A stretch of DNA of 64,000 bases, from contig DVNH01000010.1 of the NCBI GenBank assembly GCA_018714565.1, forward strand, positions 4,563-68,562, in the 5' to 3' direction. The position numbers were made by a program, and so were the translations under genes. The notes under the pieces were generated by a model. That model did no database searches. It worked only from the letters and a program-made list of their open reading frames with translations, and was not told the origin of the DNA. Each line of letters opens with the position of its first letter. The first letter of the stretch is position 1. The DNA comes from Candidatus Merdicola faecigallinarum (GTDB lineage: Bacteria; Bacillota; Clostridia; TANB77; CAG-508). This document shows, one piece after another, positions 5,792 through 49,000 of the stretch.

Positions 5792-5911
5792 AACCATCCC
5801 TCATTTCTCTATATTGTTTACTTACAATATATTATAACGTATTTATTTTATTATTTATTTTTTGAAAAATCAATAGATATTGACCAATTAGTCTGATTTC
5901 ATTCCCCTTTT

Positions 5912-5948
5912 CATCAAAAAAAGGCCTTATTTTCATAAGACCTTTTTG
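5912..5948 (-). terminator. Rho-independent terminator downstream of tuf
   Basis: On the minus strand the hairpin is AAAAAGGTCTTAT-gaaa-ATAAGGCCTTTTTTT with one U-G pair. It is followed by a U-tract and starts 12 nt after the tuf stop. Confidence 0.5.
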
Positions 5949-5959
5949 GTTGCACAATA

Positions 5960-7162
5960 TTATTCAATAATATCAGCAACAACACCTGAACCTACTGTTC
6001 TACCACCTTCACGAATAGCGAATCTTAATCCTTTTTCGATAGCAATTGGTGTGATAAGTTCGATTGTCATGTCAATGTTATCTCCTGGCATAACCATTTC
6101 TGTTCCAGCTGCTAATTCAATAACACCTGTAACGTCTGTTGTTCTGAAATAGAATTGTGGTCTATATCCATTGAAGAATGGTGTATGTCTTCCACCTTCT
6201 TCTTTTGTTAATACATATACTTGTGCTGTGAATTTTGTATGTGGATTAATTGTTCCTGGTTTTGCAAGAACTTGACCTCTTTCAATTTCTGTTCTTTGGA
6301 TTCCTCTTAAAAGAACTCCGATATTATCTCCAGCTTCAGCTTGATCTAATAATTTTCTGAACATTTCTACACCTGTAACAACAGTTTTCTTTCTTTCTGT
6401 TGTAAGACCGATGATTTCAACTTCGTCTTGGATTTTTACAACTCCTCTTTCTACTCTACCTGTTGCAACAGTTCCTCTACCTGTGATAGAGAATACGTCT
6501 TCAACTGGCATTAAGAATGGTTGATCGATTGGTCTTTCTGGTGTTGGGATATAGCTATCAACAGCATCCATTAATTCTTTCATTGGTGCATATACTGGAT
6601 CGTTAGGATCTGTTGATGTTGATTCTAATACTTGTAATGAAGATCCTTTTACAATTGGAATCTCATCTCCTGGGAAGTCATAGCTTGATAATAAGTCTCT
6701 AACATCCATTTCAACTAATTCTAATAATTCTGGATCATCAACCATATCGCATTTATTTAAGTAAACAACGATATATTTAACACCAACTTGTCTTGCAAGT
6801 AGGATGTGCTCTCTTGTTTGAGGCATTGGTCCATCAGCTGCAGAAACAACTAAGATTGCTCCGTCCATTTGAGCAGCACCAGTAATCATGTTTTTAACAT
6901 AGTCAGCATGTCCTGGGCAGTCAACGTGAGCATAGTGTCTATTTTCTGTTTCATATTCAACGTGAGCTGTGTTAATTGTAATTCCTCTTGCTTTTTCTTC
7001 TGGAGCACCATCAATTTGATCATATGCTTCAAATTGAGCTCTTCCTAATAATGATAAATATTTTGTAATAGCTGCAGTTGTTGTTGTTTTACCATGGTCA
7101 ACGTGTCCGATTGTACCAATGTTAACGTGTGGTTTTGTTCTTTCAAATTTTGCTTTAGCCAT
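5960..7162 (-). CDS. tuf: elongation factor Tu
   Basis: 400-aa ORF with [26 protein letters not shown] and the DCPGHADY GTPase motifs. An AAAGGAGG RBS precedes it. Confidence 0.97.
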
Positions 7163-7261
7163 TTAAAAATTCCTCCTTTAAATTTTTTGAGAATAAAGAC
7201 TCTTTCTTTATCTCTTTTTTATTTCTTTAAATTTAATAACGTAAATATTTGACACTTGCAT

Positions 7262-7289
7262 TTTATACTACTTTCCGGAAAAAAGCAAG
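7262..7289 (-). promoter_or_regulatory. Possible internal sigma-A-like promoter for tuf in the fusA-tuf spacer
   Basis: Minus strand reads TTGCTT, a 15-nt spacer, then TATAAA. The spacing is sub-optimal, so this is tentative. Confidence 0.2.
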
Positions 7290-7335
7290 CATTTTCTATA
7301 AAATAGATTGTTTCCTAAAAAACACCTTTAAAAAA

Positions 7336-9420
7336 CTATTCTGATTTTTTTGCTCTAGAAGCAACGATTTGCTCTAGTACTGATTTTGGAACTTCTTCGT
7401 AGTGAGAAGGTTCCATAGAATAAGTTCCTCTACCTTGTGTTTTTGAACGTAGGTCTGTTGCATAACCAAACATTTCAGAAAGTGGAATAAATCCTCTGAT
7501 AATTTGGTTTCCTGATCTTGCTTCCATTCCTTCCATTCTTCCACGTCTTGAGTTAATATCTCCAATAACATCTCCCATATATTCTTCTGGAACAGTTACT
7601 TCAACTTTCATAATAGGCTCTAAAATAACGGATTTTGCTTGTTTACATCCTTCTTTAAAAGCCATAGAAGCAGCAACTTTGAATGCCATTTCTGAAGAGT
7701 CAACTTCATGGTAAGAACCATCTACTAAAGTAGCTTTGAAATCGATTACTGGATATCCAGCTAAGATTCCACTTTCACTTGCTTCACGAATACCTTCTTC
7801 AATTGGTTTTACGTATTCTTTTGGAACAACACCACCAACGATTTTACTTTCGAATTGTACTCCTGATCCTGGCTCTAATGGTTCCATTTCTAGCCAAACA
7901 TGTCCGTATTGTCCACGTCCACCAGATTGACGAATGAATTTTCCTTCTACTTTAACTTTGTTTCGAATTGTTTCTTTATAAGCAACTTGTGGTTTACCTA
8001 CATTACATTCTACTTTAAATTCTCTCTTTAAACGATCAACGATAATATCTAAGTGTAATTCACCCATACCAGCGATGATTGTTTGGCCAGTTTCATGATC
8101 TGTATAAGTTTTGAAAGTTGGATCTTCTTCTGCTAATTTTGCTAAAGCAATACCCATTTTTTCACTTGCAACTTTGTCTTTTGGCTCAATTGCAATATCA
8201 ATAACTGGCTCTGGGAATTCCATAGACTCTAAGATAACAGGATTTGCTGGATCACATAAAGTATCTCCAGTTGTTACATCTTTTAATCCTACTGCTGCAA
8301 CAATATCTCCTGCATAAATTTTATCAATATCTTGTCTATGGTTAGCATGCATTAATAGAATTCTTCCGATTCTTTCTTTTTTATCTTTATTACTATTTAA
8401 TACAGTAGATCCTGAATCTAATTGTCCAGAATATACTCTCATAAAGCAAAGTTTTCCAACAAATGGATCTGTTGCAATTTTAAATGCTAATGCTGCAAAT
8501 GGTTCATTATCACTTGCTTTTCTTTCTGTTTCTTCTCCATCCATTGTAACACCTTTAATTGGTGGAATATCAATTGGAGATGGCATATAATCAACAATGG
8601 CATCTAACAATTCTTGAACACCTTTGTTTTTATATGATGATCCGCAACATACTGGAACGATCTTGTTTGCAATTGTTCCTTTTCTTAATCCTTTTTTGAT
8701 TTCTTCTGGTGTTAATTCTTCACCATCTAAATATTTCATCATTAATTCATCATCTTGTTCTGCCGCTGCTTCTACCATGTTTGCACGATATTCTTCTGCT
8801 TTTTCTTTTAAATCGTCTGGAATGTCACATTCTTCAATTTCTTTTCCTAAATCATCTTTATGAATGAATGCTCTCATTTTTATTAAATCAACAATTCCTG
8901 CAAATTCATTTTCTGCTCCAATTGGCAATTGAACTGGAATTGCATTTGCATTTAATCTTTCTTTCATTTGCGCAACACAATTGTAGAAATCTGCACCTGT
9001 AATATCCATTTTATTTACATATGCCATTCTTGGAACTTGATATTTATCAGCTTGTCTCCAAACTGTTTCTGATTGTGGTTGAACACCACCTTTTGCACAA
9101 AATACTGTTACTGAACCATCTAGTACACGAAGTGATCTTTCTACTTCAACAGTAAAGTCAACGTGTCCAGGAGTGTCAATGATGTTAATACGATTATTTA
9201 ACCAATGACATGTTGTTGCAGCAGATGTAATTGTGATACCTCTTTCTTGTTCTTGAGCCATCCAGTCCATTGTTGCTGCACCTTCGTGAGTTTCTCCTAT
9301 TTTGTGAACTCTACCTGTGTAGAAAAGAATTCTTTCTGTTGTTGTTGTTTTTCCAGCATCAATATGTGCCATGATTCCTATATTTCTCGTTCTTTCTAGT
9401 GGAAATTCTCTTCCTGCCAA
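7336..9420 (-). CDS. fusA: elongation factor G
   Basis: Contains [23 protein letters not shown]. The track ORF starts [12 protein letters not shown], but an AGAGGGGGA RBS sits 7-8 nt before an in-frame TTG, which gives the canonical (M)AGREFPLE N-terminus. I therefore call a TTG start at 9420. Confidence 0.93.
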
Positions 9421-9446
9421 CTTGTTTTCCCCCTCTCGGTTATCTT

Positions 9447-9917
9447 TTACCATTTATAATGAGCAAATGCTTTATTTGCTTCTGCCATTCTATGTGTATC
9501 TTCTTTCTTCTTAAATGCTCCACCATTTCCGTTAATAGCATCTATAATTTCTCCTGCTAACTTTTCTGCCATTGTTTTTTCATGTCTTTTTCTAGCATAA
9601 GTTACAAGCCATCTTAGACCTAATGTTTGTCTTCTTTCTGGTCTAATTTCTAATGGAACTTGATATGTTGCTCCACCAACTCTTCTTGCTTTAACTTCAA
9701 GAACTGGCATAATGCTATTAAGTGCTTCTTCAAATACTTCTAGTGGATCTTTTTGCTCTTTTTCTTTTACGATGTCAAATGCATCATAAACAATTTTTTG
9801 AGCAACTGATTTTTTACCATCTAACATAATATTATTTACTAATTTTGTTACAATTTTACTATTGTATATTGGATCTGGTAAAACATCTCTTTTTGCTATA
9901 TATCCTTTTCTTGGCAC
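9447..9917 (-). CDS. rpsG: 30S ribosomal protein S7
   Basis: 156-aa ORF beginning [28 protein letters not shown]. Confidence 0.96.
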
Positions 9918-10065
9918 TATTCTTCCCTCCTTATTATTTTTCGATACTAAATTTCAAGTATCTTAGGTACTCTGAAAAGTATCTTTACTTTTCCGTATAG
10001 TGCAATCTATTCTAAATTTAAGTACCTTAAAATTAGTAACGATTCGCACTAGTTTTACTTATTTT

Positions 10066-10479
10066 TTATTTCTTTGGTCTTTTTGCTCCATATTTAGATC
10101 TACCTTGCATTCTGTCTTTTACTCCTGCTGTATCTAGTGTTCCTCTAATAATATGGTATCTAACACCTGGAAGGTCTTTTACTCTTCCTCCTCTAATTAA
10201 AACAACACTGTGTTCTTGTAAGTTATGTCCAATTCCTGGAATGTATGAAGTAACTTCATATCCATTAGAAAGTCTAACTCTGGCAACTTTTCTTAAAGCT
10301 GAATTAGGTTTCTTTGGCGTAACTGTTTTTACAACAGTACAAACTCCTCTTTTTTGAGGTGCTCTATTATTAGTTGTTCTCTTTTTCTTAGAGTTATAAC
10401 CATGTTGTAGAGCTGGTGCTGTTGATTTTGTCATTGCTGTTTTTCTTCCTTTTCTTACTAATTGATTAATTGTTGGCAC
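10066..10479 (-). CDS. rpsL: 30S ribosomal protein S12
   Basis: Begins (M)[12 protein letters not shown]. It uses a GTG start with an AGGAGGTGA RBS 7 nt upstream. Confidence 0.96.
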
Positions 10480-10545
10480 TTAAATTTCACCTCCTATATT
10501 TTTTAAAAAATTGCACAAATTTGGCAATTTACATTAACGCTAATT

Positions 10546-10574
10546 ATTTTATCATCATTTTCCTATAATGTCAA
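10546..10574 (-). promoter_or_regulatory. Sigma-A-type promoter of the str operon (rpsL)
   Basis: Minus strand reads TTGACA, a 17-nt spacer (ttataggaaaatgatga), then TAAAAT, about 70 nt upstream of the rpsL GTG. Confidence 0.5.
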
Positions 10575-10589
10575 TGCTTTTAGGGATAA

Positions 10590-10650
10590 AAAAAGAGAGA
10601 GACAATTCCCAAAAAAAATGGTTAATTGTCCCTCTCTCTTTCATTTTTTG
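10590..10650. terminator. Bidirectional rho-independent terminator
   Basis: GAGAGAGACAATT...AATTGTCCCTCTCTC stem (about 13 bp with one bulge), flanked by an A-run on one side and a T-run on the other. It overlaps the stop of the 10641 ORF and separates the island from the rpsL promoter. Confidence 0.5.
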
Positions 10651-11045
10651 TGAGCTCCTATTTCTGCCGTTTCCTTATTGGCTTCCTCTTGTGCTCTTTG
10701 AGCTGCCTGTAGCTCTTTTTGTGCCTTTTCTTGCTTCGCTTTTGCCTGTGCTCTTGCTCTTGCTTGTACTACGCTTTTGGTTCTGTTATAAGCAACAGTC
10801 CAAATAATAACACCTAGAGTAGCAATAGCAACAAGTAACAGTGGCATACGCCACAGGTCGAAGTCGCCCAATGCTGCCAGTTGTTTCCCAATTACTCCGA
10901 ATGTTTCTGAGACTAGATCCCAATTAAAACAAACGAAGGAAACAAGTAATACAACCGCCATCCCTATCAGATACCGACAGATCACTCCTCCCATTAGGTT
11001 TGTACTTACCTTTTTGCGCGACCTTTTGATGTTTTTCATGTACAT
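10641..11045 (-). CDS. Small two-TM membrane protein with lysine/alanine/glutamine-rich C-terminal tail, in a GC-rich islet
   Basis: MYMKNIKRSRKK, two hydrophobic helices, then an ARARAQAKAKQEKAQKELQAAQRAQEE tail. AGGAGGAAA RBS. Local GC is clearly higher than the surroundings and it uses the CGG, CGC and AGG arginine codons that native genes here avoid. Confidence 0.5.
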   Translation of the reverse strand: MYMKNIKRSRKKVSTNLMGGVICRYLIGMAVVLLVSFVCFNWDLVSETFGVIGKQLAALGDFDLWRMPLLLVAIATLGVIIWTVAYNRTKSVVQARARAQAKAKQEKAQKELQAAQRAQEEANKETAEIGAHKK

Positions 11046-11229
11046 TTCCTCCTGTTCTTTACTTCGATCCACTGGATCATAGTTTTATTATATCACATTT
11101 TGTTTTCCTTTTCAATCTACATAATTTTCTCTTATGAATAACTTGTGACTTTTTGGAAGGCTGACTTATTTTTACAATTCACAGTTTAGCATATAAAAGG
11201 TTTGCAAAGAATAAACTGTTATTTGTAAC

Positions 11230-11706
11230 TTACTTTTTATTTCTATGAAAGAAATTATAAATAACTTTCCTTATTTTTTGAATAAAAGACTCTTTATATT
11301 CAACTAAACTTGTGTTAGCAGGCTTCTCACTATTTTGTTGCTCATTTCTTATTTCATTCTTTTGGTCTTCTGTTTTTTTCCTTTGTTTAAATATACTTTC
11401 TATACTATACTTTTCTTCAACTTCTGTTTGATTCTTATTTAATATTTTTTTTAATTGTTCCTTTTCCTGTTCATTTTCGCACCAATAGTTTAAATGAAAC
11501 AGCATAATCATAGCTAACGCCTGATTAGTTATATTTTGCTTATACATATCAATCTCTGCATTATATACTGGATTATATCCTCTGTTTCTTTCTCTATCTA
11601 TTAGTTGATATAATTGTTTAGGAAGTTTCTCAATATATTTACTTCCTAGCATATTTAGTACACCATATACTTCGGAATAATAGTTTTTCTGTTGTACATT
11701 TATCAT
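11230..11706 (-). CDS. Hypothetical protein (158 aa)
   Basis: The start overlaps the stop of the upstream ORF (ATGA), indicating translational coupling. No recognisable motifs. Confidence 0.45.
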   Translation of the reverse strand: MINVQQKNYYSEVYGVLNMLGSKYIEKLPKQLYQLIDRERNRGYNPVYNAEIDMYKQNITNQALAMIMLFHLNYWCENEQEKEQLKKILNKNQTEVEEKYSIESIFKQRKKTEDQKNEIRNEQQNSEKPANTSLVEYKESFIQKIRKVIYNFFHRNKK

Positions 11707-13190
11707 CCTATCTCTTGTCCCTCGCTTTCTTTTTCCTGAACATGAACTTCTTTTTCCATTTGTAAAGTATCTTTAATAAAACTTAACGATTGTCCTAACA
11801 TCTCATTAGTAATATCCCTCATGTCATATGAATTTAAGAAATTTGAAAATATATCTTTAGCTCCGCTTACTTTTTCATTTACATTATTCATAAAGTTATT
11901 TGCAAAACTTTTTATTGAATATACACTTTTCCCCATACTTTCATATATATTTTTTAACAACTCCTGATTATTAGTTAACTCCAGGGTTTCATTATTTCTC
12001 ACTAGCTTGCTCGAAGCATATTCATCAGGTATCTCTTGTATTGTAGGTAATACATCAATGGGCAACATTTCAGCGTTTTCTGGTTTTGTAACATAGAATT
12101 CTCTTGCTGTAATATTTCTATCATCTGCATTAATATCTGTTCCTTTGCCAACGCTTTCATACTCCCTCAATCTTATCATATTCATATTTTGTTCATCTAC
12201 AGTTTGAGTAACTGCTCTATAATGATAGATTCCTTCGCCATCGAAAGAGATTTCCATATATTCTCCTGGCTCAAATCCTGTCCCAGATATTGAGTTTTCA
12301 GTAATAGTTAAATTCTCATCTATTTTTTTTACTACATTTTCGATTCCTTCTTTAGAAGTTAAGTCAAAATCCTTTCCTACTGCTCCGGCTACCATCATTT
12401 CTAATTGTCTATAGCAATTTTCATCATTTAAAAATCGTTCTGATACCCCTAGCTTCTCCAATATAGGTTTCATTCCCGAAAATTCCATTAATGTTATGTT
12501 TTGATCTCCATTATTTGGTTGATTATATATATCTTCTGCTATTTGACTAATTTCATCTTGTCTTTCATCAGTATTATCTCTTTGTCTTCTAGCTGAATAT
12601 AAATTTGAACTATCTATTATGTATGGAGTTTGAGAATTCGTTTCTACTAGCTCCCAATATTCATCATACTTAAAATCCAATCCCTGCATATGTTGCGATA
12701 CAGAATCGCTTTTTTGTTTAAACTCTTCTCCTAATTGGTCATATTCACTTTGTTCTAACTGTTCTACCTTTGATTTTGATGTCTCCCCAATTAATATATC
12801 TTGCTCACCAGTTTGATATGTATTTTCATCTAACATTTCTAGCAATTTATTCCCTTCACATAACCACATATTAACCTTACTAATTTTTATTTGATTTTCT
12901 TCTGGTTTAGTTAATTTCGTAGAAGTGCTTATTTTTTCGTGAATAGATGCTATACTTACTTGTTCATTTCCAATCTCCCATTGTCCTTTTATTAGATCTG
13001 CTAATTTATCTGCATCACTCATAGATTCTATTGTTAAATTTTTATCTTTAATTACTTTGCTTAATTGACTTTTTAGTTCTTCATATGCCACACCACTGTT
13101 TATAAAAGCCTCATCTACTCCGGCTTCGCTTAAAACATATTTATACACGTCATCTTCTGACTTACTATCAAAAACAAAATTTTCTAACAC
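11703..13190 (-). CDS. Hypothetical acidic soluble protein (495 aa)
   Basis: Long uninterrupted ORF with a GTG start preceded by AAGGGGA. No TM segment and no nucleotide-binding motif that I recognise. Confidence 0.5.
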   Translation of the reverse strand: MLENFVFDSKSEDDVYKYVLSEAGVDEAFINSGVAYEELKSQLSKVIKDKNLTIESMSDADKLADLIKGQWEIGNEQVSIASIHEKISTSTKLTKPEENQIKISKVNMWLCEGNKLLEMLDENTYQTGEQDILIGETSKSKVEQLEQSEYDQLGEEFKQKSDSVSQHMQGLDFKYDEYWELVETNSQTPYIIDSSNLYSARRQRDNTDERQDEISQIAEDIYNQPNNGDQNITLMEFSGMKPILEKLGVSERFLNDENCYRQLEMMVAGAVGKDFDLTSKEGIENVVKKIDENLTITENSISGTGFEPGEYMEISFDGEGIYHYRAVTQTVDEQNMNMIRLREYESVGKGTDINADDRNITAREFYVTKPENAEMLPIDVLPTIQEIPDEYASSKLVRNNETLELTNNQELLKNIYESMGKSVYSIKSFANNFMNNVNEKVSGAKDIFSNFLNSYDMRDITNEMLGQSLSFIKDTLQMEKEVHVQEKESEGQEIG

Positions 13191-13477
13191 AATTTTCCCC
13201 TTTCAATTCCCTTAAAATGTTAAATTATAATCTTGAATTTAACAATTATAATAATACACTATGTTTATTTTTTTTTCAATTAGTTTTTTTATTTTTTTAT
13301 ATAAATAACTTGTGATTATTTTAATTCTTTTTTATAATTTTCTCTTTCTTAATTTGAAATTAGCTCTGTATTTCCTATTTTATTTTTATTCTCTCATCAG
13401 GAGAGCACCAGAAGCATATGCTACTAGTGCTCTCCTTTCTTGTATTAACTACAATCCCTGCAGGAAGAAGGCAAAAC

Positions 13478-13795
13478 TCATCTGCGACTTCTTCTTGTAT
13501 CGTTTCCCTGACCCTGAGTTTGATTCTCTGTTTGTGTCTGCCCTGCATTGGTATCTTTTTTTCTCCGTGGAAGCTTCACAGTCGAAACTCCACCTTTGAA
13601 AGACTGATACAGGCTACTACCAACCACTCCAATCACAACGCCAATGATCAGCGGAATTGCATTTGATGTGATCCAATTCCAAATACCCTGCCAATCAGGA
13701 CTAGGAATTTTCCCAATCAAATTAAATTCCAGCACCAAATACATCAGCACCATACCTAAGATCAACCAGAAAACTTTACTTTTCAACCTCTTCAT
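13478..13795 (-). CDS. Small two-TM membrane protein with basic/Gln-Thr-rich tail, in a GC-rich islet
   Basis: MKRLKSKVFWLILGMVLMYLVLEF (TM1), PSPDWQGIWNW, a second TM, then a KLPRRKKDT...RRSRR tail. AAAGGAGCGG RBS. It contains an in-frame CGG. Confidence 0.5.
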   Translation of the reverse strand: MKRLKSKVFWLILGMVLMYLVLEFNLIGKIPSPDWQGIWNWITSNAIPLIIGVVIGVVGSSLYQSFKGGVSTVKLPRRKKDTNAGQTQTENQTQGQGNDTRRSRR

Positions 13796-13928
13796 ACTAA
13801 CCGCTCCTTTCCAAATGTTAATTGTTTATATGAAGATGAAACCTAGGGGTTATCTTCTTTATTATACCATAGATTTGTCATTTTTTCAAGTTTATGTCTA
13901 CTCCCCTAGTCGGTGTCATAACTACAAA

Positions 13929-13971
13929 ATACACCTTAAATATTAGATCTTTTCCAATATTTAAGGTGTAT
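13929..13971 (-). terminator. Rho-independent terminator after the 14015..15493 gene
   Basis: A 16-bp perfect stem ATACACCTTAAATATT / AATATTTAAGGTGTAT with an 11-nt loop. On the minus strand it is followed by a U-rich run. Confidence 0.45.
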
Positions 13972-14014
13972 TCCTTCCTTATTTCAGTTTTCCTATTTAA
14001 ATAATTCTTTTATA

Positions 14015-15493
14015 CTATCTTCCATCGCGTCCGCTTTGTTTTTGTTGTTGTTTTGCTTGAGTCCATCCATCAAAAATTCGGTTTTGTGCTTTTGCTTTTA
14101 CTTGTAAACCAGATTTGAATTTTCTTTGATCTCTCTCTATATTTTTTAATACGTCTACACGATCAATTTTACTACTTCTTCTTTGTTTTTTTGCAAGCAT
14201 TGCTTGTTCTATTTTTTCTCTTCCCTTAAAGAAACTTCTTGGGTTAGCAAAACGGAATGCCATTCTCTGTCTCCATTTTGCAAATCCACTAATTTCTTTT
14301 TGTCCTTCTTTTACTCTGTATGGAGTCGTTTCCATTAAAGATACAACAGAATCAGCTTCTTCCCTTTTTTCCTTCTCTAATTCTGATTTTTCTTTTAAGG
14401 CTTCATCCATTGCCATTTCCATTACAGCAATATCTTGTTCCAATTTTGGAATAAATCTCTTTAACTCTGTATCAGATGGAATTGGTCCTACCATCCCTGA
14501 AAAATATCTATTTTGAATATTTGCATCTTTCATTTCTATCTTTCTAGTAGATGTGTTTTCCTCTGCCACTTTTATTGTTTTTCCTAATTTTGCAGCAACT
14601 TTTCCAGCAAGCGCTGCACCTGCTGCATCTCTCTTAGGATTAAATGCATCACGTCTTAAACGAGCCACAAAATCTTTTGCAGATTCTCCTGATCCTTGTT
14701 TTTTTGTTCCGTCATCTTCGTACTCTTTATATGCTTTTGGATCAGAATCCATAATAATATCTCTTTGGTCATAGTAATGTCCTTTTACTTTATTTTCTAA
14801 TTCTGCTTTTTCTGATTTTAATTCTTCTTTTTCTTCATCCGATTTCGCTGGATCTGCAAGTTCTGTTGCAATCGATGCAAGTCTAGCATTTGCTCTTGTG
14901 ATTTTTCCATCTAATTCAAGCAATTTTCGATCAATCTCTTGTGTTTTTTTGAATTCTTCGATTTCTGCTTTCATGCCATCTCTTAAATCCATTATCGGAT
15001 TCATATTGGTTTTAATCTCATTTTGTTTTGCTTCTATTTTTCTGTCATACTCTGCTATATTTCTATTGTGATATGTTTTTTCTAATTCTCCAGAGCGCTC
15101 TGCTTTTATAATTTCTGAATATACATTATCAATTATTGTTACTTTGCTATCTCTACTTGCTTTTAATAAATCTCTTGCTTTTGTAAAAGTATCTACTTCA
15201 GATGGCTCTAAAGGCTCATCTTCGTTGTATTCTCTACTCTTAATAATTGTATCCATTTGTGAAATTGCATCATCATATAAATCTAGAATATCATCTAAAA
15301 CCAACTCATTACCATTAATTGTAATGTTTTGTAAATTATTTGTAATTCTTCTTAATAAACCTTTTACATCATTATCACTTAAAGCAACTGTTGTGTCTGT
15401 TCTTGACAATAAACTATCTCTAATATCATTTACAAGATTATCTACTCTTTGTCCTACTCTACGCAATTGTTCATTTCCTGATCTTAAATCCAT
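14015..15493 (-). CDS. Hypothetical coiled-coil protein (492 aa), charged and helical throughout
   Basis: Long E/K/R-rich ORF with heptad-like regions, no TM segment and no Walker motif. RBS AAAGGGGA. Confidence 0.5.
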   Translation of the reverse strand: MDLRSGNEQLRRVGQRVDNLVNDIRDSLLSRTDTTVALSDNDVKGLLRRITNNLQNITINGNELVLDDILDLYDDAISQMDTIIKSREYNEDEPLEPSEVDTFTKARDLLKASRDSKVTIIDNVYSEIIKAERSGELEKTYHNRNIAEYDRKIEAKQNEIKTNMNPIMDLRDGMKAEIEEFKKTQEIDRKLLELDGKITRANARLASIATELADPAKSDEEKEELKSEKAELENKVKGHYYDQRDIIMDSDPKAYKEYEDDGTKKQGSGESAKDFVARLRRDAFNPKRDAAGAALAGKVAAKLGKTIKVAEENTSTRKIEMKDANIQNRYFSGMVGPIPSDTELKRFIPKLEQDIAVMEMAMDEALKEKSELEKEKREEADSVVSLMETTPYRVKEGQKEISGFAKWRQRMAFRFANPRSFFKGREKIEQAMLAKKQRRSSKIDRVDVLKNIERDQRKFKSGLQVKAKAQNRIFDGWTQAKQQQKQSGRDGR

Positions 15494-15546
15494 ATTCCTC
15501 TATCCCCTTTCTTAGGTTATAGATTGACACCTACCTTCCTCTTCTT

Positions 15547-15741
15547 TTAATTTAATGATTTTTCTACTGCCTCTATAATTAATAACTTTTTTTGTATTTC
15601 TAATGTTAATTTTGTATATTCTGCAAGTTCCTTCGTTGAAGCTTTCTTTAAATCTTCTTCCGAAATATTATTGTTGATTTCATCTAATTGTCTTATAATT
15701 TCTTCTTTTTGTCTCATTAACTCTTTTAAATTTTCGTTCAT
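15547..15741 (-). CDS. Small helical protein (64 aa)
   Basis: MNENLKELMRQKEEIIRQLDEINNNISEEDLKK is predicted to be helical. It is the first gene of the island transcription unit. Its small size makes it uncertain. Confidence 0.35.
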   Translation of the reverse strand: MNENLKELMRQKEEIIRQLDEINNNISEEDLKKASTKELAEYTKLTLEIQKKLLIIEAVEKSLN

Positions 15742-15985
15742 AGATCTTTCATCTTAATTTTTAAAATTAAGATATCCTCCTTTCATTTTATCTTATGTTA
15801 ACCTATCTTTTTTTACATCACTATTATAATTTTACTATATTTTCCTATAAAAATCAACAAAAAAACAAAAATTTATATATTCTTCTCCTTTTTTAGTTAT
15901 ATATTAAATTTAATAGAATTTTTGAAAGACATCCCATGCTTTTTTTGAATTTTACCTATATAACTTAGATCATATGCAAAAATAA

Positions 15986-16019
15986 AAGAATGTTTAATCC
16001 TATTGTAATAAACATTCTT
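15986..16019. terminator. Bidirectional terminator after trmFO
   Basis: AAGAATGTTTA / TAAACATTCTT 11-bp stem with an A-run upstream and a T-run downstream. Confidence 0.4.
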
Positions 16020-16028
16020 TTATTTCTT

Positions 16029-17339
16029 TTATTCTATTTTTATTTCTTTTAATTTTTTCATTGCTCTATCTGCTAGTGCCTCATATCTCATTTTCTTATC
16101 TCTAATTTTTTCTGAAAGTTCTGGTAATATTCCAAAATTTGCATTCATAGGCTGAAATTTGTCATTTTCTGTCACAATATATTTCGTAATTGCCCCACTC
16201 ATTGTTTCTTTTGGAATCTCTATTTTTTCTTTTCCCTGTAATATATTGGCAGCATTTATTCCTGCAATTAATCCTGACATAATAGATTCTACATATCCTT
16301 CTACTCCAGTAATTTGTCCCGCAAAGAATATGTGAGGGTTTGTTCTTAGCTGATAACTTTCATTTAATAGCTTAGTAGAGTTGATATAAGTATTTCGGTG
16401 CATTACCCCATATTTTACGAACTCTGCTTTTTCAAGTCCAGGAATAAGAGAAAACACTCTTTTTTGTTCTCCAAATTTTAAATTTGTTTGAAACCCTACT
16501 AAATTATATAGTGTTCCTTCTTTATTGTCCTGTCTTAATTGTACAATTGCATATGGTCTTTTTCCTGTTCTTGGATCCGTAAATCCCACTGGCTTTAAAG
16601 GTCCAAATCTTAATGTATCTTTTCCTCTTTTTGCCATCACTTCCACTGGCATACAGCCTTCAAAAATTTCTCTTTTTTCAAATTCATGTAGTTCTACCAC
16701 TTCTGCACCTATTAATTCTTGATAAAATTGTTCATATTCTTCTTGGTTCATTGGAAGATTAATATAACTTGCTTCTCCCTTTCCATATCGATCACCAATA
16801 AACGCAATTTCAAAATTAACACTTTCTTTTGTGACAATAGGCGCTGCTGCATCATAAAAGAAAAGCTTATCTTGTCCCGTTAAGTCTCCTATCTTATTTG
16901 CCAAAAGATCTGCAGTTAATGGGCCTGTCGCAACAATAATAATATCATCTTCTTGAAATTCGTTAAAATCTGTGATTTCTTTATGGATCACTTCAATATT
17001 TTGATTTTCTCTTATTGCATTTGTTACTTCTTCTGAAAATTTTTCTCTATCCACCGCTAAGGCTTGCCCTGCTGGCACCTTTGTTTGATCAGCAATTTTT
17101 ATTAGAAGAGAATCCATTTGTCTAAGTTCTTCTTTTAAAAGTCCACATGCATTTGTATGCAAGTTCGATTTAAAAGAATTACTGCAAACAATCTCTGCTA
17201 AATTTTCATTCGAATGTGCTGAAGAATATTTCTTCGGTTTCATTTCATATAATTTTACTTTTATTCCTCTTTTTGCGACTTGATAAGCAGCTTCAGATCC
17301 GGCTAAACCTCCACCTATAATATGAATTATTTTTTCCAT
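16029..17339 (-). CDS. trmFO: methylenetetrahydrofolate--tRNA-(uracil54-C5)-methyltransferase TrmFO (Gid)
   Basis: Begins MEKIIHIIGGGLAGSEAAYQ (FAD-binding GGGLAGSEAA). I placed the start at the ATG preceded by GGAATGGAGAAAAG; the track ORF has 21 extra upstream codons. Confidence 0.88.
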   Translation of the reverse strand: MEKIIHIIGGGLAGSEAAYQVAKRGIKVKLYEMKPKKYSSAHSNENLAEIVCSNSFKSNLHTNACGLLKEELRQMDSLLIKIADQTKVPAGQALAVDREKFSEEVTNAIRENQNIEVIHKEITDFNEFQEDDIIIVATGPLTADLLANKIGDLTGQDKLFFYDAAAPIVTKESVNFEIAFIGDRYGKGEASYINLPMNQEEYEQFYQELIGAEVVELHEFEKREIFEGCMPVEVMAKRGKDTLRFGPLKPVGFTDPRTGKRPYAIVQLRQDNKEGTLYNLVGFQTNLKFGEQKRVFSLIPGLEKAEFVKYGVMHRNTYINSTKLLNESYQLRTNPHIFFAGQITGVEGYVESIMSGLIAGINAANILQGKEKIEIPKETMSGAITKYIVTENDKFQPMNANFGILPELSEKIRDKKMRYEALADRAMKKLKEIKIE

Positions 17340-17404
17340 CTTTTCTCCATTCCTATTTTCTCTTCGAATTATCAATCTACACGATTGTTTATGGTATATC
17401 ATTT

Positions 17405-20400
17405 TTATTCAAATAAGCTCATGATTTCATCTTTACTTAATTGGCTAATAAAGGTAGTTTCTGTACCAATCATTTGATCAATTAATTTTTCTTTTTTCTC
17501 CTGTAATTCATAAATCTTTTCTTCAATCGAATTCTTCGTAATTAACTTATATACTTGCACATTATTTTTTTGCCCAATTCGATAAGCTCTATCTGTTGCT
17601 TGATTTTCTGCCGACATATTCCACCAAGGATCATAGTGAATTACCATATCCGCACCAATCAAATTTAACCCTGTTCCTCCTGCCTTTAATGATATTAAAA
17701 ATACTTTTACTTCTTCATTTTTATTAAAATCATCTACTAAGCCAATTCTTTCTTCTACTTTTGTTTGCCCCGTCAATTTATAATATTTTATATTCTCCTT
17801 CTTTAAATGCCCTTCAATAATTTTAAACATTGAAGTATATCCAGAGAAAATTAAAATCTTATGTCCTCCTTCTACTGCATCTTTTACCAATTCGATACAT
17901 TGTGTTAATTTACTACTTCCACTTTGATAATTTTCGATAAATAAAGAAGGATGACAACAAATTTGTCTTAATCTTGTAAGAAGAGCTAATATCTTTATTT
18001 GGGATTTTTCGAATCCTTGCTGTTTTATTTCTTTCATTGCCTCTGTCCTTGCTTGAGATAAATAAGACATATAAATCTTTTGTTGCTCTTCTTCCATTTC
18101 ATTATTTAAAATAGTAACACTTTTTTCTGGTAACTCTTTTAATACTTCTTTCTTTATTCTTCTTAAAATGAAAGGTTCAATCATCATCTTTAATTTCTTA
18201 CTTGCTTCTTCATCGTTATCTCTCATAATTGGGATTTCATAAATCTGTTTGAACTTTTTATAAGTAAACAAATAACCTGACATAATATAATCAAAAATGG
18301 ACCAAAGTTCTGCTAATGAATTTTCAATTGGCGTTCCTGTAAGGGCAAATTTGGTATGGGCATAAATTCTTTTTAATGCTTTTGCATTTTGTGTATGACT
18401 ATTTTTTATATATTGTGCCTCATCCGCAATTTGATAATAAAAGTGAATATCATTTTCTTCATAAAAATCGATATCTCTTTTTAGTAAATCATAGGAAGTA
18501 ACAATAAGATCATAATTTGAAATTTGTTTTATTTTCTCTTTTCTTTCTTCTATATTTCCTCCCATAACTAAAACTTTTATCTCTGGTGCAAATTTTTCTA
18601 TCTCACTTTTCCAGTTTAATGCAAGTGAACTTGGTGTTACAACTAAAGAAGGAATCGGATTTGGAGTATTTTCCAGATAATCCAAAAGCAAAGCCAATAC
18701 TTGTACTGTTTTTCCAAGTCCCATATCATCTGCTAAAATTCCACCTAATTGATATTGATTTAATACTTTTAGCCATCGATATCCAATTTTTTGGTAATAA
18801 CGCAATTGACATTTTAAACCTTTTGGAACATAATCTGTATTTTCGATTTCCTTATCATGGATTTGATTTACTAAATCTTTATACTCTTGGTTTTTTTGTA
18901 TTTCAATATGTTTTAAGTTTTCTAATATTTTATTTAAATATAAAGTTCGATAAAGTGGTACCTTAATTTTACCTCGTTCCAAATCTTTATAATCTACTTC
19001 CATTCCATATTCTAAACTATTTAGAAATTGAATATCTTCATTTTGTTCTAAATCAATAAAACTTCCATCTTTTAACCTATGGTATTTTTTTCGAATATTG
19101 TATTTCGCTAAAATCTCTTTTAACTCTGTTCGATCAAATTCTAAACCTGTTAAATCAATATCTAACAAATTGTTTTCGATCTTGACTCCTATCGTTCCTA
19201 ATTTAGGCTGTCTAATCTCTTTCGTTTTAAAGTTGTCTGTTACTAAAACCTCAAATCTCTTCATGTATTCTTCGATATCTTCGGATAAAAAGTGGTAAAT
19301 TGAATCATCACTAACTAGTATAAATCTTAAATTTGCAGAATCTAATAAAAATCCCGTTTTTCGAAATAGATTTAAACATTCTGTTTCTTGCACTACATTT
19401 CTTGCAATTTTATGTTCTTTTTCAATATCAATTGGATTGAATTCATAATCCCCATAGCAAAATTTAACATCTGCAATAATATAATTATTTTTATCATAAT
19501 CTAAATAAACTTTTACCCTTAATTCTTTTGGTATATATTTTTCCCTGACCTCTGGCAAAATATTTTCAATAATAATACTTTCTTTTAACTTTGGTACGAT
19601 TAAAGAAAAGAAATCTGGTAATTCCTTTTTACTAAATTTAATTGTTTGCACAAAATTTTTACGAAAAATTTCTAATAATTTAAAAGTGGTATGTTTAAAT
19701 TCTTTTTCACATCGATATAGCATGTCATCTAATAAAAAATAAATATATTCTTTTCCTTCTAATAAACTATAATCCTTTTCTTGTATACTTGGTGCAAAAA
19801 TAAATTCTTCACTATTAATTTGTTCTAATTTAAAAGTAATATTTGGCTCAGCTGGAATTAATTTTATTTTATTTTCTTCCGAATTCCCATGCATTGCAAT
19901 TGTTTTGCCTTTCATAATTTCAAAAAATTCATCCAAACCAGTATTACTAAGAAGAACAAAATTATCATTTAAAACTTTTCCATAATATCGATATCCTGTA
20001 TTTCCACTACTATTTACATATTTTATAATTTCTGCTTGTTTTAAAACAAATTCTAAAAGTTCTTTGCTTTCTGGTACAAAATTGCAAGGATCATGAACAA
20101 ATTCTAATTTTGTTCCATATCGATATTTTTCTTTTTCTAACATTCTAGTATAAAAATCGGATAGACTCTTTATTTTATACAGCTTTTCCTCTCCTATTTT
20201 TAATTCTAATTTCATTTCTTTACTATATTGGTCATACCATATTTCTGGAAAAATCTTTACTTTATGTGTTGCTGTCATTTCCTCTTTTGTTTCATAAGTT
20301 TCTACTTCTTCTTGATAAAAAGCATGAATCATCTGTTTAAAATTACGATAATTTCCTTTTCCTATTTGCTTTGGTTGCAAATCTACTGTTTTTTTTGTAT

Positions 20401-45477: not shown

Positions 45478-45990
45478 ATGAAAAAAAGAACAACTAAAAA
45501 AGAAGCTTGGTGCAACCGGATGATTATTTTAACTGTAAGTTTATTCATTATTTGGCTTTCTTTTCAGTTTTTCTCAGCAGCTTTTGATTTAGCGTCAAAT
45601 AGAGATGCTATTAAATATTTGAATCAATATGCAAACTGGGATTTAACTGACCATCAGCTGTATGACCAGTATGAAGAGAACATCGAAAACATCTCCCGTA
45701 GTTCCGACATCGGACAATGGATGGTGGAATCTGGTTCCACTTATACAGGACAAATCGTTCGATTTGCTGTACTCGCTGGATTTGTTGTTGTAGATTTCTT
45801 CGCAATCTATCTAATTGCTAGCCTTATAAAAATGATCATTCTCGACTGTCTTCATCATCTCTTTGGAGGAAAGCTCGCACAGTCCAAAATGGATTTCCGA
45901 ATTTCTATCAAAGAAATTTCAAGACAGCGCCGGAAAGCAAAATTCAAAAGAAATTCCAAGCATCTTACAAACAACCGCAGGGCTTCCTAA
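45478..45990 (+). CDS. Small two-TM membrane protein with basic C-terminal tail, GC-rich
   Basis: MKKRTTKKEAWCNRMIILTVSLFIIWLSF..., NWDL after TM1, a second TM, then a RQRRKAKFKRNSKHLTNNRRAS tail. It has in-frame CGG codons at two places. It is the only sizeable plus-strand gene in this part of the window. Confidence 0.5.
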   Translation: MKKRTTKKEAWCNRMIILTVSLFIIWLSFQFFSAAFDLASNRDAIKYLNQYANWDLTDHQLYDQYEENIENISRSSDIGQWMVESGSTYTGQIVRFAVLAGFVVVDFFAIYLIASLIKMIILDCLHHLFGGKLAQSKMDFRISIKEISRQRRKAKFKRNSKHLTNNRRAS

Positions 45991-46050: not shown

Positions 46051-49000
46051 TTATAATATAGCTTCTATTTCATAAATTTTTCCATCATCCATTAACTTTA
46101 CTTGCGTTTCTTCTCTTTCCATTCCATTTATTCTTAGTCTGGCAATTCCCGTATTTTTCTTTTCCGGATTTTTTATAGTAATTTTATACTTTGTTTTCCC
46201 ATATTGGTATGAAATTTTGTACTCCTCCCATTCCTTCGGAATACATGGTTCTATTCTTAAAAATCCATTTTTTACTTTTAATCCTAAAATATATTCTATC
46301 CCTGCCAAATAAAGCCAACTACTTGAACCGGTATACCATGTCCAACCTCCACGACCAGCTAAATTTTGAGCTCCATATACATCCGCTGCAACTACATACG
46401 GCTCTACTTTATATTTCTGTGCCGCTTCTTTCGTTCTTGCATGTTCAATTGGATTAATCATTTTAAAGAATTCAAATGCTTTTTCTCCAAATCCTAGCAT
46501 GGCTTCTGCAATAATTGCCCAAATTGCTCCATGGGTATATTGTCCTCCATTTTCTCTTACCCCTGGCAGATAAGACTTTATATATCCTGGTTTTAGTTTT
46601 CCTTTATCAAATGGTGGATCTAATAGTTTTATAATTCCGTTTTCTTTATCTACTAAATGATTTTCTAAACTTTCCATAGAAATATATTTTTTATCATTAT
46701 CTCCTGCTCCGGAAATAACGGACCAACTTTGAGCAATACTATCAATTCTACATTCTTCGTTTTCTATACTACCTAAAATTTGTCCATCATCCATAAATGC
46801 CCTTTTAAACCATCTTCCATCCCAAGCATTTTTGTTTAAAGCTTTTTTCAAGTTTTGAATAATTTCCTCATAGGTATTTGCTCTTTCTTCTTCCCCTTTT
46901 TCCTTTATGATTGGGATAAAATCTTTTAGTATTTTATATAAGAAAAATCCAAGCCATACACTTTCTCCTTTTCCTTTTGGTCCTACATTGCTTAAACCAT
47001 CATTCCAATCTCCAGATCCAATTTTAGGAAGTCCATTCTCTCCAAATTTCAAAGATCTTTCAATTGCTTTGATACAATGCTCATAAATGTTTCCTTTCTG
47101 GTCTGTTTCTAAAAATAAATCATATTTTTCAATTTGATTTTCTTCCAGTAAGTTACCTTTCAAATAGTTGGTTTCAATTTCTAAAATTTGCTTATCTCCT
47201 GTTGTTTTAATATATTCTTCTACCAAATATACTAACCATAGTAAATCATCTGAAAATTTAGTACGTATTCCTCTTTTGGTTTCTGGATGCCACCAATGTT
47301 CTACATCTCCTTCTATAAATTGATGTTTACTTTGCTCTATAATCTGCTCTTTCATAAACGTTGGATCCATATATTTTAGTCCTAAAGTATCTTGCAGTTG
47401 ATCTCGGTAGCCAATTGCTCCTCCAGATTGATAGTATCCTGTTCTTCCATATAATCTTGATACAATGATTTGATAAATAAGCCATCCATTTAATAATATA
47501 TGAAATGATTCTAATGGTGTTTCTACCTGTACTCGACTTATTCTATCCTGCCAATATTTTTTCACATTTAAAAGTTCTTGCTTACAATTTGACAAGTTCG
47601 AATATTGATAAGCAATATTTTTCATATCTAATAAGTTTTCCTCTTCTCCTAAACAAATTGAAAATTCTTTTCTTTCATATGGTTCTAATTCCATTTCAAA
47701 TTCAATTGCAATACAAGAATCTTGCCCTAATCCGTCTTCACAATCCAAAGACACTTTATGAATTCCTACAGGATTTTGCAAACCCGAATTTCCTAGAAAG
47801 AATTTCTTATTTCCTGTATAAGAATGAATTTCTTCACTACATGTAATATAAACTTTCCTTTGTTTTGGATCATCTGTATATAAGTTTTGTGCGTAAACAA
47901 TATTATTTTCTTTTTTTACCTGTATATTTCCATTGGTTTTTAATTCATCTTCTCCTAGCACAGCCTTCACATAATAGAATATTTTCAGTTTTTTCTTCTT
48001 AGGAAGCGTATTTTTTAAAGTAACCTTATTTATTTTTATCTTTTCTTCTCTAGGAACAAAAATTTCTGCTTGTTGTATGATTCCTAAAGAAGTATGCTCA
48101 TATTTGGCATACCCAAAACCATAAGTAATATAATAATCACTTTTATCTGGCATTGGTCTACTTCCTAAAGACCATGCTTTTCCATTTTCTAAATCTTTTA
48201 AATAAATAATTTCAGATGGTATGTCAAAACATGGATTATTGTTCCAGGCAGAAATTCGATTTAGTCTACTATTATCAGACCAAGTATATCCTCCCATTCC
48301 TTCTGTTAATACCGTTCCGAAATGTTTATTTGCAAGAATATGACTCCATACAGTTGGAAGTTTAGAATCCTCATTTACTTTTATTACATATTCTTTTCCC
48401 TCATTAAAAAAAGCACCATATTCATTATAATATTGGATTGGTTTACTAGTTTGAATTTGGTCAAGTTCATTTCCTCTTATCATTTCTTCTTCTAAAACAA
48501 TCTGTTTTGCTTCAATATTTCCTATATTTTTTATACTATTTTTGTAGTTTTCTTGCATTTGTTCTAATTGAGATTTTAAATTTCCCCAATGTGCATCTAT
48601 TTTTAAATTGCTCCTATATTCTAATATTTCTTTATCTTCTTTACTTAATTCATATTCATTTAGTACAAAAATTCCTGCTTTTCTATTTTTTAAATAAGAT
48701 AAATGCCTATTTAAAATTGCATTTTCGATTGCTTCTTTTACATATTGCTCATAACTATATTTTTCTTGATTTAAAATTACAAGTTCAATCTCTATATTTT
48801 TAATTTTTAAATACTCATAAATTTTTAGTAATTCTTCTATCACATAAATATCATTTGCATCCCTTATTTTCACTAACAAAATTGGATCATCTCCGGAAAT
48901 TCCAAATTTCCATAGTTCCTCTTGCTTATATTTTCTTTTTGCATAAGAAGAGATATATAATTTTTTCATTGGATTTTGTTTGATTAAATAAGAAAGAATT

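Follow-up and report, generated by a model that had tools for sequence, protein, structure and literature searches.

MinD, FtsA and SepF, as well as the SpoVM-SpoIVA pair, are tethered to the membrane by a terminal amphipathic helix. Crescentin, FilP/Scy, DivIVA and EzrA are bacterial coiled-coil-rich scaffold proteins, among which EzrA has an N-terminal transmembrane (TM) segment and DivIVA a lipid-binding motif. Secretion systems also make use of substrate-chaperone pairs, with type VII substrates carrying a YxxxD/E signal and effectors having chaperones. Holin-dependent non-lytic export in clostridia, in which TcdE and TpeE accompany large toxins, is described in a review (PMC9527704). Here we analyze a locus that resembles each of these systems in part: six genes (orf1 to orf6) located between trmFO and rpsL in a 64,000-nucleotide stretch of DNA (the window) from a metagenome-assembled genome (MAG) of Candidatus Merdicola faecigallinarum, an uncultured member of the Clostridia from the chicken gut.

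The interval from trmFO to rpsL is a slot between core genes whose content varies across the clade. Its filling in the window is, in the reading that we tentatively prefer, a composite of an inherited triad, orf1-orf3, and a separate cassette, orf4-orf5, whose products would be non-enzymatic scaffold and adaptor proteins close to the membrane. An earlier note on this DNA had taken the six genes for a single acquired module. Its description of the locus is largely borne out, its interpretation in part. The single module does not hold for orf1-orf3, which have positional orthologues in the nearest relative, and survives only for orf4-orf5, as an accessory cassette that is also found on mobile elements.

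Comparison with described systems

As in TcdE- and TpeE-dependent export, this Clostridia genome encodes a large protein without a signal peptide beside a small membrane protein whose C-terminal tail is charged. However, orf3 and orf6 match no holin family, the locus contains no endolysin or peptidoglycan hydrolase, and the presumptive cargo has no toxin domain. Similar to the amphipathic-helix tethers, the orf5 product is modelled as a folded domain joined by a flexible linker to a cationic amphipathic helix at the C-terminus, and it has a gene-coupled partner, but it lacks an ATPase or actin-like fold and resembles MinD, FtsA, SepF or SpoVM-SpoIVA neither in sequence nor in structure. The orf2 product is, like crescentin, FilP/Scy, DivIVA and EzrA, long, highly charged, partly heptad-periodic, fast-diverging and apparently non-enzymatic, with conserved ends; unlike DivIVA and EzrA, it has no Pfam match to coiled-coil families, no N-terminal TM segment of the EzrA kind and no lipid-binding motif of the DivIVA kind. 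As in substrate-chaperone pairs, the conserved small orf5 stands beside variable large proteins that share a YxxxD-containing C-terminal motif, but the locus proteins have no WXG/LXG domain (neither WXG100 nor LXG in Pfam) and match no known chaperone fold. Nor did a type VII core gene turn up in the loci analyzed, although no systematic search for one was made.

The locus and its transcription units

Six open reading frames (ORFs) on the minus strand fill the interval between trmFO (16029-17402) and rpsL (10066-10479), where the earlier note had placed six uncharacterised genes, and their products are on deposit as hypothetical proteins IAB70_01070 to IAB70_01090. The locus contains the following features:

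15547..15741, minus strand: orf1, 64-aa acidic helical protein, from the ORF list
14015..15493, minus strand: orf2, 492-aa highly charged, partly coiled-coil protein
13928..13972, minus strand: intrinsic terminator after orf2, hairpin and U tract
13861..13889, minus strand: orf3 promoter-like site, TTGAAA-17-TATAAT with TG
13478..13795, minus strand: orf3, 105-aa two-TM protein
13399..13436, no strand assigned: hairpin after orf3, strong fold
13291..13321, no strand assigned: direct repeat copy 2, 31 nt, imperfect, upstream of the orf4 promoter
13251-13279: orf4 promoter-like site, sigma-70-like
11703..13190, minus strand: orf4, 495-aa acidic protein
11230..11706, minus strand: orf5, 158-aa basic protein
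11124..11154, no strand assigned: direct repeat copy 1, 31 nt, imperfect, just upstream of the orf6 promoter
11087-11115: orf6 promoter, extended -10
10641..11039, minus strand: orf6, 132-aa two-TM protein
10590..10641, minus strand: intrinsic terminator after orf6, hairpin and U7
10546-10574: rpsL promoter, after the last terminator

All six genes are real and translated. This follows from three observations taken together: the order orf1 to orf6 between trmFO and rpsL is the same in four independent assemblies from other samples, strains vary in orf3 and orf6 by conservative substitutions and by insertions or deletions of two codons in frame, and the ratio of nonsynonymous to synonymous polymorphism (pN/pS) is below 1 wherever the variation among five strains (the window and L102-L105) suffices to measure it. 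Among these strains, orf2 and orf3, with a pS of 0.015-0.018, are the most polymorphic when compared with the other island genes and with the neighbours snf2, trmFO and rpsL, whereas snf2, trmFO, orf4-orf6 and rpsL are nearly invariant.

The six genes had previously been described as one transcription unit with terminators at 10590-10650 and 13929-13971 and with translational coupling through an ATGA overlap at 11703-11706. Both terminators are found as hairpins with U tracts, and orf4 and orf5 do overlap by these 4 nt. However, the single unit is contradicted by the terminator after orf2, which is internal to the locus, by the hairpin after orf3 and by the promoters that orf3, orf4 and orf6 have of their own. 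The orf2 terminator hairpin (13972-13928) has a dG of -25.5 kcal/mol and a z of -8.6 and is followed by a U tract; that of orf6 (about 10641-10590) has a dG of -28 kcal/mol and a z of -5.3 and is followed by U7; the hairpin 3' of orf3 has a dG of -28.1 kcal/mol and a z of -6.8. The promoters that separately precede orf3, orf4 and orf6 are sigma-70-like, and those of orf3 and orf6 are of the extended -10 type, matching 11 of 12 consensus positions. Hence, transcription of the locus is composite and not that of one operon, the likely units being orf1-orf2, orf3, orf4-orf5 and orf6, at least four in number.

The hairpin that trails orf3 has no U tract on the coding strand. Its T-rich tail is on the plus strand, where there is no evident gene.

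A variable slot between core genes

Scanning genomes with TrmFO yielded 80 relatives, 39 of which keep the order SNF2-trmFO-gap-rpsL-rpsG-fusA (19 of 33 when only those with 9 kb or more of downstream sequence are counted). In these 39 relatives the gap measures between 146 and 8334 bp (median 2.1 kb) and is empty only once; the window, with a gap of 5.55 kb, has the third-largest filling among the 40 genomes. All but one genome have in the gap a highly charged protein of 320-1070 aa in the same orientation (sometimes inverted). These large proteins consist of 32-45% D, E, K and R, contain neither a TM segment nor a Pfam domain, and split into many clusters without detectable relation to orf2.

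The interval thus has what defines a chromosomal hot spot, namely conserved flanks (SNF2-trmFO and rpsL-rpsG-fusA) kept in 39 relatives with unrelated contents between them that vary in size and sequence, and in one relative (L005) the slot includes a diversity-generating retroelement (DGR) and a transposase. However, it differs from other hot spots in that it is rarely empty, usually holds the same type of gene, a large charged protein, and is marked by neither an integrase nor a tRNA. Much of the variation may therefore be divergence in place and not gain and loss of genes. There is also little to suggest a prophage or an integrative element in the interval: none of its ORFs, all of which are accounted for, is a recombinase, the PHROG matches are insignificant and the only flanking repeat is marginal. 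Relatives of orf5, unlike the copy here, do occur on such elements. The slot offers a convenient natural marker for the speed at which non-enzymatic charged proteins diverge.

In L005 the slot region at 13610-19439 contains the retroelement, made up of a MutS_I-like 151-aa protein, bAvd and an RVT_1 reverse transcriptase. The retroelement adjoins a 484-aa ORF with a pilin-like N-terminus, and the region also has a PDDEXK_2 (PD-(D/E)XK) transposase.

The inherited triad orf1-orf3

The nearest relative of the window is L001, whose TrmFO is 78% identical and whose triad is followed directly by rpsL. There, orf1 has an orthologue of 75% identity in the same position. For orf2, the orthologue at the corresponding position of L001 is the sole detectable homologue (38% identity, E 2e-91), and an 81-aa two-TM gene in the position of orf3 shows weak collinear similarity to it (z=5 versus shuffles). 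With these orthologues at the same place, orf1 and orf2, and probably orf3, are inherited. The drop from 78% identity in TrmFO to 38% in orf2 indicates very fast divergence of the latter.

L045 and L074 repeat this three-part architecture. So does L063, where the big ORF is split, and so do L061 and L009, where the big-ORF pair is inverted. Members of the small orf1 family always stand immediately upstream of a large charged ORF. A hidden Markov model (HMM) of this family finds a small protein beside a large charged ORF in six further loci; the orientation is that of the window in L001 and L074, and the pair is inverted in L009, L061, L076 and L011. Among strains of the species, orf1 is identical in the four others.

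The orf2 product contains 93 acidic and 95 basic residues and no TM segment. It had been called entirely coiled-coil, which overstates the signal: heptad periodicity exceeds the shuffle threshold in 23% of its windows versus 3-4% in globular controls, and conserved terminal domains (about 160 aa at the N-terminus and about 100 aa at the C-terminus) enclose a variable middle. The orf3 product has two predicted TM segments, a basic N-terminus and a charged basic tail.

The orf4-orf5 cassette

The orf4 product is acidic, as had been noted for this 495-aa protein, with a computed pI of 4.4, and the orf5 product has the opposite charge (pI 9.2). Alignment and an AlphaFold2 (AF2) model give orf4 two copies of a domain of about 150 aa, each a helical bundle with a beta meander of 5-6 strands. 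Its C-terminus forms a conserved 'SYDxxDITxEML' helix, which is followed by a Q/E-rich tail, and this conserved region contains a short motif of the YxxxD type (YDMRD, YDVRD, YDNYD and YDSQD in the family). An exhaustive HMMER search among 1.84 billion representatives gave 6 matches to orf4. An orf5-like gene follows its distant homologues L081_672, L094_653 and P0149, as it does all four family members whose downstream context is complete. P0149, which is acidic and signal-peptide-less, has a LysM domain inserted (PF01476, E 1.6e-11); Pfam finds no LysM in orf4 itself.

The orf5 family comprises 75 clusters of proteins of about 150 aa with invariant P29, H71, N73, Y74 and W75 and a conserved C-terminal helix, 'VEYKES-F..KI..KIK..F'. 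In the AlphaFold prediction a helical domain with a pLDDT above 90 is connected by a low-confidence linker to a terminal cationic amphipathic helix with a hydrophobic moment of 0.59. The family is new, and its confidently predicted fold is without a structural neighbour in the PDB or BFVD, where the best Foldseek E-values for the model are 0.45-1.3. Pfam searches with every member of the family alignment bring up no consistent weak family.

In 12 of 16 distinct contexts a gene for a larger protein ends no more than 60 nt before an orf5-like gene or overlaps it. The partner is usually variable and without a Pfam domain. The contexts include a position after parA-parB, two positions inside the dcw cluster (behind a DUF4116 protein and behind a SecA-like paralogue), a position after ruvB, an integrative mobilisable element cut into murA and an inovirus-like contig, and some genomes have several orf5-like copies. 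In L061 two consecutive two-TM genes precede rpsL, which is how the window would be expected to look without orf4-orf5. Thus, orf4-orf5 is a separately distributed, translationally coupled cassette between the small membrane-protein genes orf3 and orf6.

Some partners may share the orf4-type C-terminus. An HMM of this region, run against 777 control C-termini, places L086_384 (the DUF4116 protein; 22.8 bits) and L084_347 (14.2 bits) among the top non-family scores, and within the partner set L100_647 scores 17.8 bits.

The imperfect 31-nt direct repeat that flanks orf4-orf5 (81% identity, shuffle p about 0.02) is a weak signal, be it of an insertion scar, a shared operator or chance. As an insertion scar it was set aside: the statistic is marginal, both copies are just upstream of promoters (those of orf4 and orf6), and no comparable repeat flanks orf5-type pairs at other loci.

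Three of the contexts are of note in themselves. The murA element (L084-L089 and L101; about 2.9-13 kb of each locus) has left split EPSP_synthase fragments; its cargo includes a Mob_Pre relaxase, Bro-N, DUF6076 and a large serine recombinase, and its orf5-like gene is located behind a 335-347-aa protein with an HExxH motif. In L086, five extra genes (5833-11219) separate ftsL from the PBP gene of the dcw cluster, namely those for the DUF4116 protein and an orf5-like protein, an 878-aa SecA-like paralogue and a second orf5-like protein, and a 142-aa ORF. L099, an IMG/VR contig of 10.3 kb, is inovirus-like, with a Zot-like ATPase, small hydrophobic proteins and an XRE repressor; there, a gene for a 385-aa protein is followed after 14 nt by the orf5-like gene. 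The HExxH motif common to the partners L084_347 and L099_385 was considered as a sign of kinship, but the two proteins have no similarity beyond it.

These contexts raise the question of whether orf4-orf5, perhaps with orf6, belongs to a conflict system carried as cargo by mobile elements, such as a toxin-immunity, abortive infection, exclusion or anti-defence module. The presence of orf5-like pairs on the murA element and the inovirus-like contig, their positions at different core-gene junctions (after parB, inside the dcw cluster, after ruvB), the tight coupling, the variable partner and the several copies per genome are all in agreement with it. However, Pfam and PHROGs return no significant defence, toxin or immunity match, and PADLOC-DB returns only stray matches to Cas8a, Cas11a and Cas6d over short stretches (E at least 0.006). 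Neither orf4 nor orf5 has a toxin or nuclease domain of the toxin-antitoxin or polymorphic toxin kind, orf4 being a duplicated domain that does not look catalytic, and tblastn found nothing in 50,697 phage records (with orf2, orf3, orf5 and orf6) or in 72,556 plasmid records (with orf5). Furthermore, it is the small member of the pair that is conserved and the large one that varies, the opposite of typical toxin-immunity co-variation. We therefore regard a conflict system as rather improbable.

A role in sporulation is less probable still. Here orf4 would be a signal-peptide-less morphogenetic protein of the LysM type, akin to SpoVID, SafA or SipL, and orf5, by way of its amphipathic helix, would anchor it at the forespore membrane in the manner of SpoVM with SpoIVA. 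The LysM domain in P0149 and the amphipathic C-terminal helix of orf5 would suit such a role, as would a Germane-domain gene near one pair and a sigma-70-family gene beside another. Yet orf4 is itself devoid of LysM, pairs occur on the integrative mobilisable element and the inovirus-like element and in several copies per genome, and neither Pfam nor NCBIfam shows a similarity to SpoVID, SafA, SipL or SpoVM.

The small membrane genes and their GC content

Two TM segments are predicted in each of orf3 and orf6, in accordance with the earlier description of two small two-TM proteins; in orf6 they are accompanied by an Ala/Gln/Lys-rich, charged helical tail. The length of orf6 had been given as 143 aa. 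Its start is most likely the ATG at 11039, which gives 132 aa, because an AGGAGG ribosome binding site stands in front of it, most database copies have 132 aa and this length is called in four assemblies.

Nowhere in the 64 kb does the GC content peak higher than at these two genes (0.44-0.45 versus a mean of 0.30), which bears out the statement that the small membrane genes are richer in GC than their neighbours. At third codon positions (GC3), orf3 has 0.415 and orf6 0.353, 6-8 standard deviations above the 0.168 ± 0.030 of 36 other genes of the window, whereas orf1, orf2, orf4 and orf5, at 0.16-0.21, are near the native value. The interpretation of this richness as a mark of acquisition does not stand, however, for the excess is common to the positional counterparts of small two-TM genes in five other species. 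A third small membrane gene of the window (45478-45990, plus strand; 170 aa, 2-3 TM segments, a basic tail) is another GC peak with a GC3 of 0.359. The excess shared by the counterparts in other species and by this third gene is thus a property of the genes and not a scar of transfer. Being conserved across species in genes of tiny membrane proteins, it could bear on codon choice and on the membrane targeting of very short proteins.

Two simpler explanations of the GC-rich patches were rejected. They do not look like RNA genes: apart from the terminator hairpin, Rfam gives no match in the locus at the gathering score or at E<=1, and the strain variants are of the coding type. Nor is the richness a consequence of amino-acid composition only, as the excess sits at third codon positions.

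The charged tails and the two TM segments of orf3 (105 aa) and orf6 (132 aa) fit the architecture of holins, although this architecture is not specific to holins. It is worth considering that orf2 and orf4 are surface or released proteins that leave the cell non-classically, with orf3 and orf6 acting like non-lytic holins and orf5 as a targeting chaperone, their fast divergence reflecting pressure from a host or from phages. Twice in this locus, and again in L001, L045, L063 and L074, a large protein without a signal peptide precedes a two-TM protein that has a charged tail and is transcribed independently. The peptidoglycan-binding LysM of P0149, the YxxxD motif of the orf4-family C-terminus, the high polymorphism of orf2 and orf3 among strains and the pilin-like target of the DGR in the L005 slot point in the same direction, and clostridia use holin-like proteins to secrete toxins without signal peptides, according to the review cited above (PMC9527704). 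On the other hand, neither orf3 nor orf6 has a significant match to a holin family (best PHROG holin E=0.41, Rz-like spanin E of at least 0.005, no hit in the tblastn of phage records), and the ORF list and Pfam reveal no peptidoglycan hydrolase in the trmFO-rpsL interval. Most orf5-containing loci are without a downstream two-TM gene, one orf5 partner is a SecA-like ATPase, that is, a cytoplasmic protein, and pN/pS is below 1. On balance, such an export route is unlikely.

Little is left of the view that the locus is one functional module of six genes acquired horizontally. Its size as a slot filling, the atypical composition of two small genes and the fact that orf2 and orf4 have no homologues outside close relatives speak in its favor. 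However, orthologues of orf1-orf3 occupy the same place in L001, the GC3 of the other four genes is native-like, the locus comprises at least four transcription units, orf5 pairs are found elsewhere in the absence of the other island genes, the high GC3 of the two-TM genes is kept across species, and there is no integrase and no convincing flanking repeat. We disfavor the single module, to which we give hardly any credence.

Searches for remote homologues

The earlier note had seen no catalytic motif in the six proteins, and this agrees with our searches: Pfam, NCBIfam, PHROGs and PADLOC gave nothing significant for any of them, and no family was recognised. Remote-homology searches likewise assigned none of the genes to a housekeeping family. 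The roles proposed in the note (a PspA- or flotillin-like scaffold, a secretion or immunity pair, phage defence) gained no significant family match. For PspA/IM30/ESCRT-III and flotillin (SPFH) in particular, Pfam and NCBIfam give no PspA_IM30 or Band_7 match for the six proteins, and the best ESCRT-like hit is CHMP4B at E=0.15 (orf2 against the PDB). Sequence and profile searches of the PDB with orf2, orf4 and orf5 gave nothing below E 0.1.

In a word-indexed search of 5.8 billion proteins, orf2 and orf4 retrieve only themselves. A scan of JGI metagenomes with orf2 and its L001 orthologue and scans of IMG/VR with the orf2 and orf4 alignments found nothing. The model of orf4 was also compared with known structures, where the actin-capping protein CapZ appeared at a Foldseek E of 0.01; with a TM-score of 0.13-0.21, it is a lead and not a match.

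A possible role of the locus

In the composite reading, which we prefer while giving it less than even chances, the six proteins would be non-enzymatic structural and adaptor proteins at the cytoplasmic face of the membrane. The orf2 product would serve as a coiled-coil scaffold together with orf1, and orf3 could be its partner in the membrane. The orf5 product would be an adaptor, whose helical domain may recognise the conserved C-terminal helix and tail of variable partners such as orf4 and whose linker and C-terminal amphipathic cationic helix would bring these partners to the membrane. Candidate processes are the scaffolding of the envelope or of division and the delivery of proteins without signal peptides.

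Several observations weigh against this reading. We infer the roles of membrane tether and adaptor solely from the architecture of the proteins, and the LysM domain of P0149 and the holin-like shape of orf3 and orf6 would fit an extracytoplasmic destination equally well. Four of the 16 orf5-like genes have no large upstream partner. The HMM of the orf4-type C-terminus gave one clear false positive, a TtcA-like enzyme in L047 with 16.6 bits, and four orf5 partners were below scoring in the same test. The insertion of orf4-orf5 is deduced from one close relative and a marginal repeat, and a deletion in L001 is equally possible. Finally, hhalign comparisons of the orf2 cluster with seven other clusters of slot proteins gave probabilities of 1% or less and thus give no support to a common ancestry of all slot proteins or to a single ancestral scaffold family.

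A bolder extension of the adaptor idea would make the orf5 family an unrecognised protein-targeting route of gut Clostridia and their mobile elements. The adaptor would read a 'YDxxDIT' tag on polymorphic signal-peptide-less proteins (orf4-like, DUF4116, LysM-bearing and SecA-like) and deliver them to the membrane, possibly even across it through the holin-like two-TM proteins with GC-rich codons. We think it quite improbable that this is so, but if it were true, it would provide the first functional handle on unassigned families in uncultured small-genome gut Clostridia and in mobile elements. For the present, what we have is chiefly a set of clustered hypothetical genes restricted to the lineage, of a kind that is common in such MAGs. 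It contains one interesting new family, orf5, and one unexplained compositional signal, and no coherent new system is demonstrated.

Other observations in the window and its relatives

In one of the strains (L103) the rpsG-fusA-tuf stretch is divergent, which suggests recombination. Elsewhere in the window (24794-26010, minus strand) ftsW is split into an N-terminal half of 216 aa (25360-26010) and a C-terminal piece (24794-25111). Four independent assemblies of the species show ftsW divided in the same way (216 + 92 aa), which points to a genuine frameshift, pseudogene or recoding event and not to an assembly error. A single ORF of 2724 aa with several TM segments occupies 46051-54225 on the minus strand.

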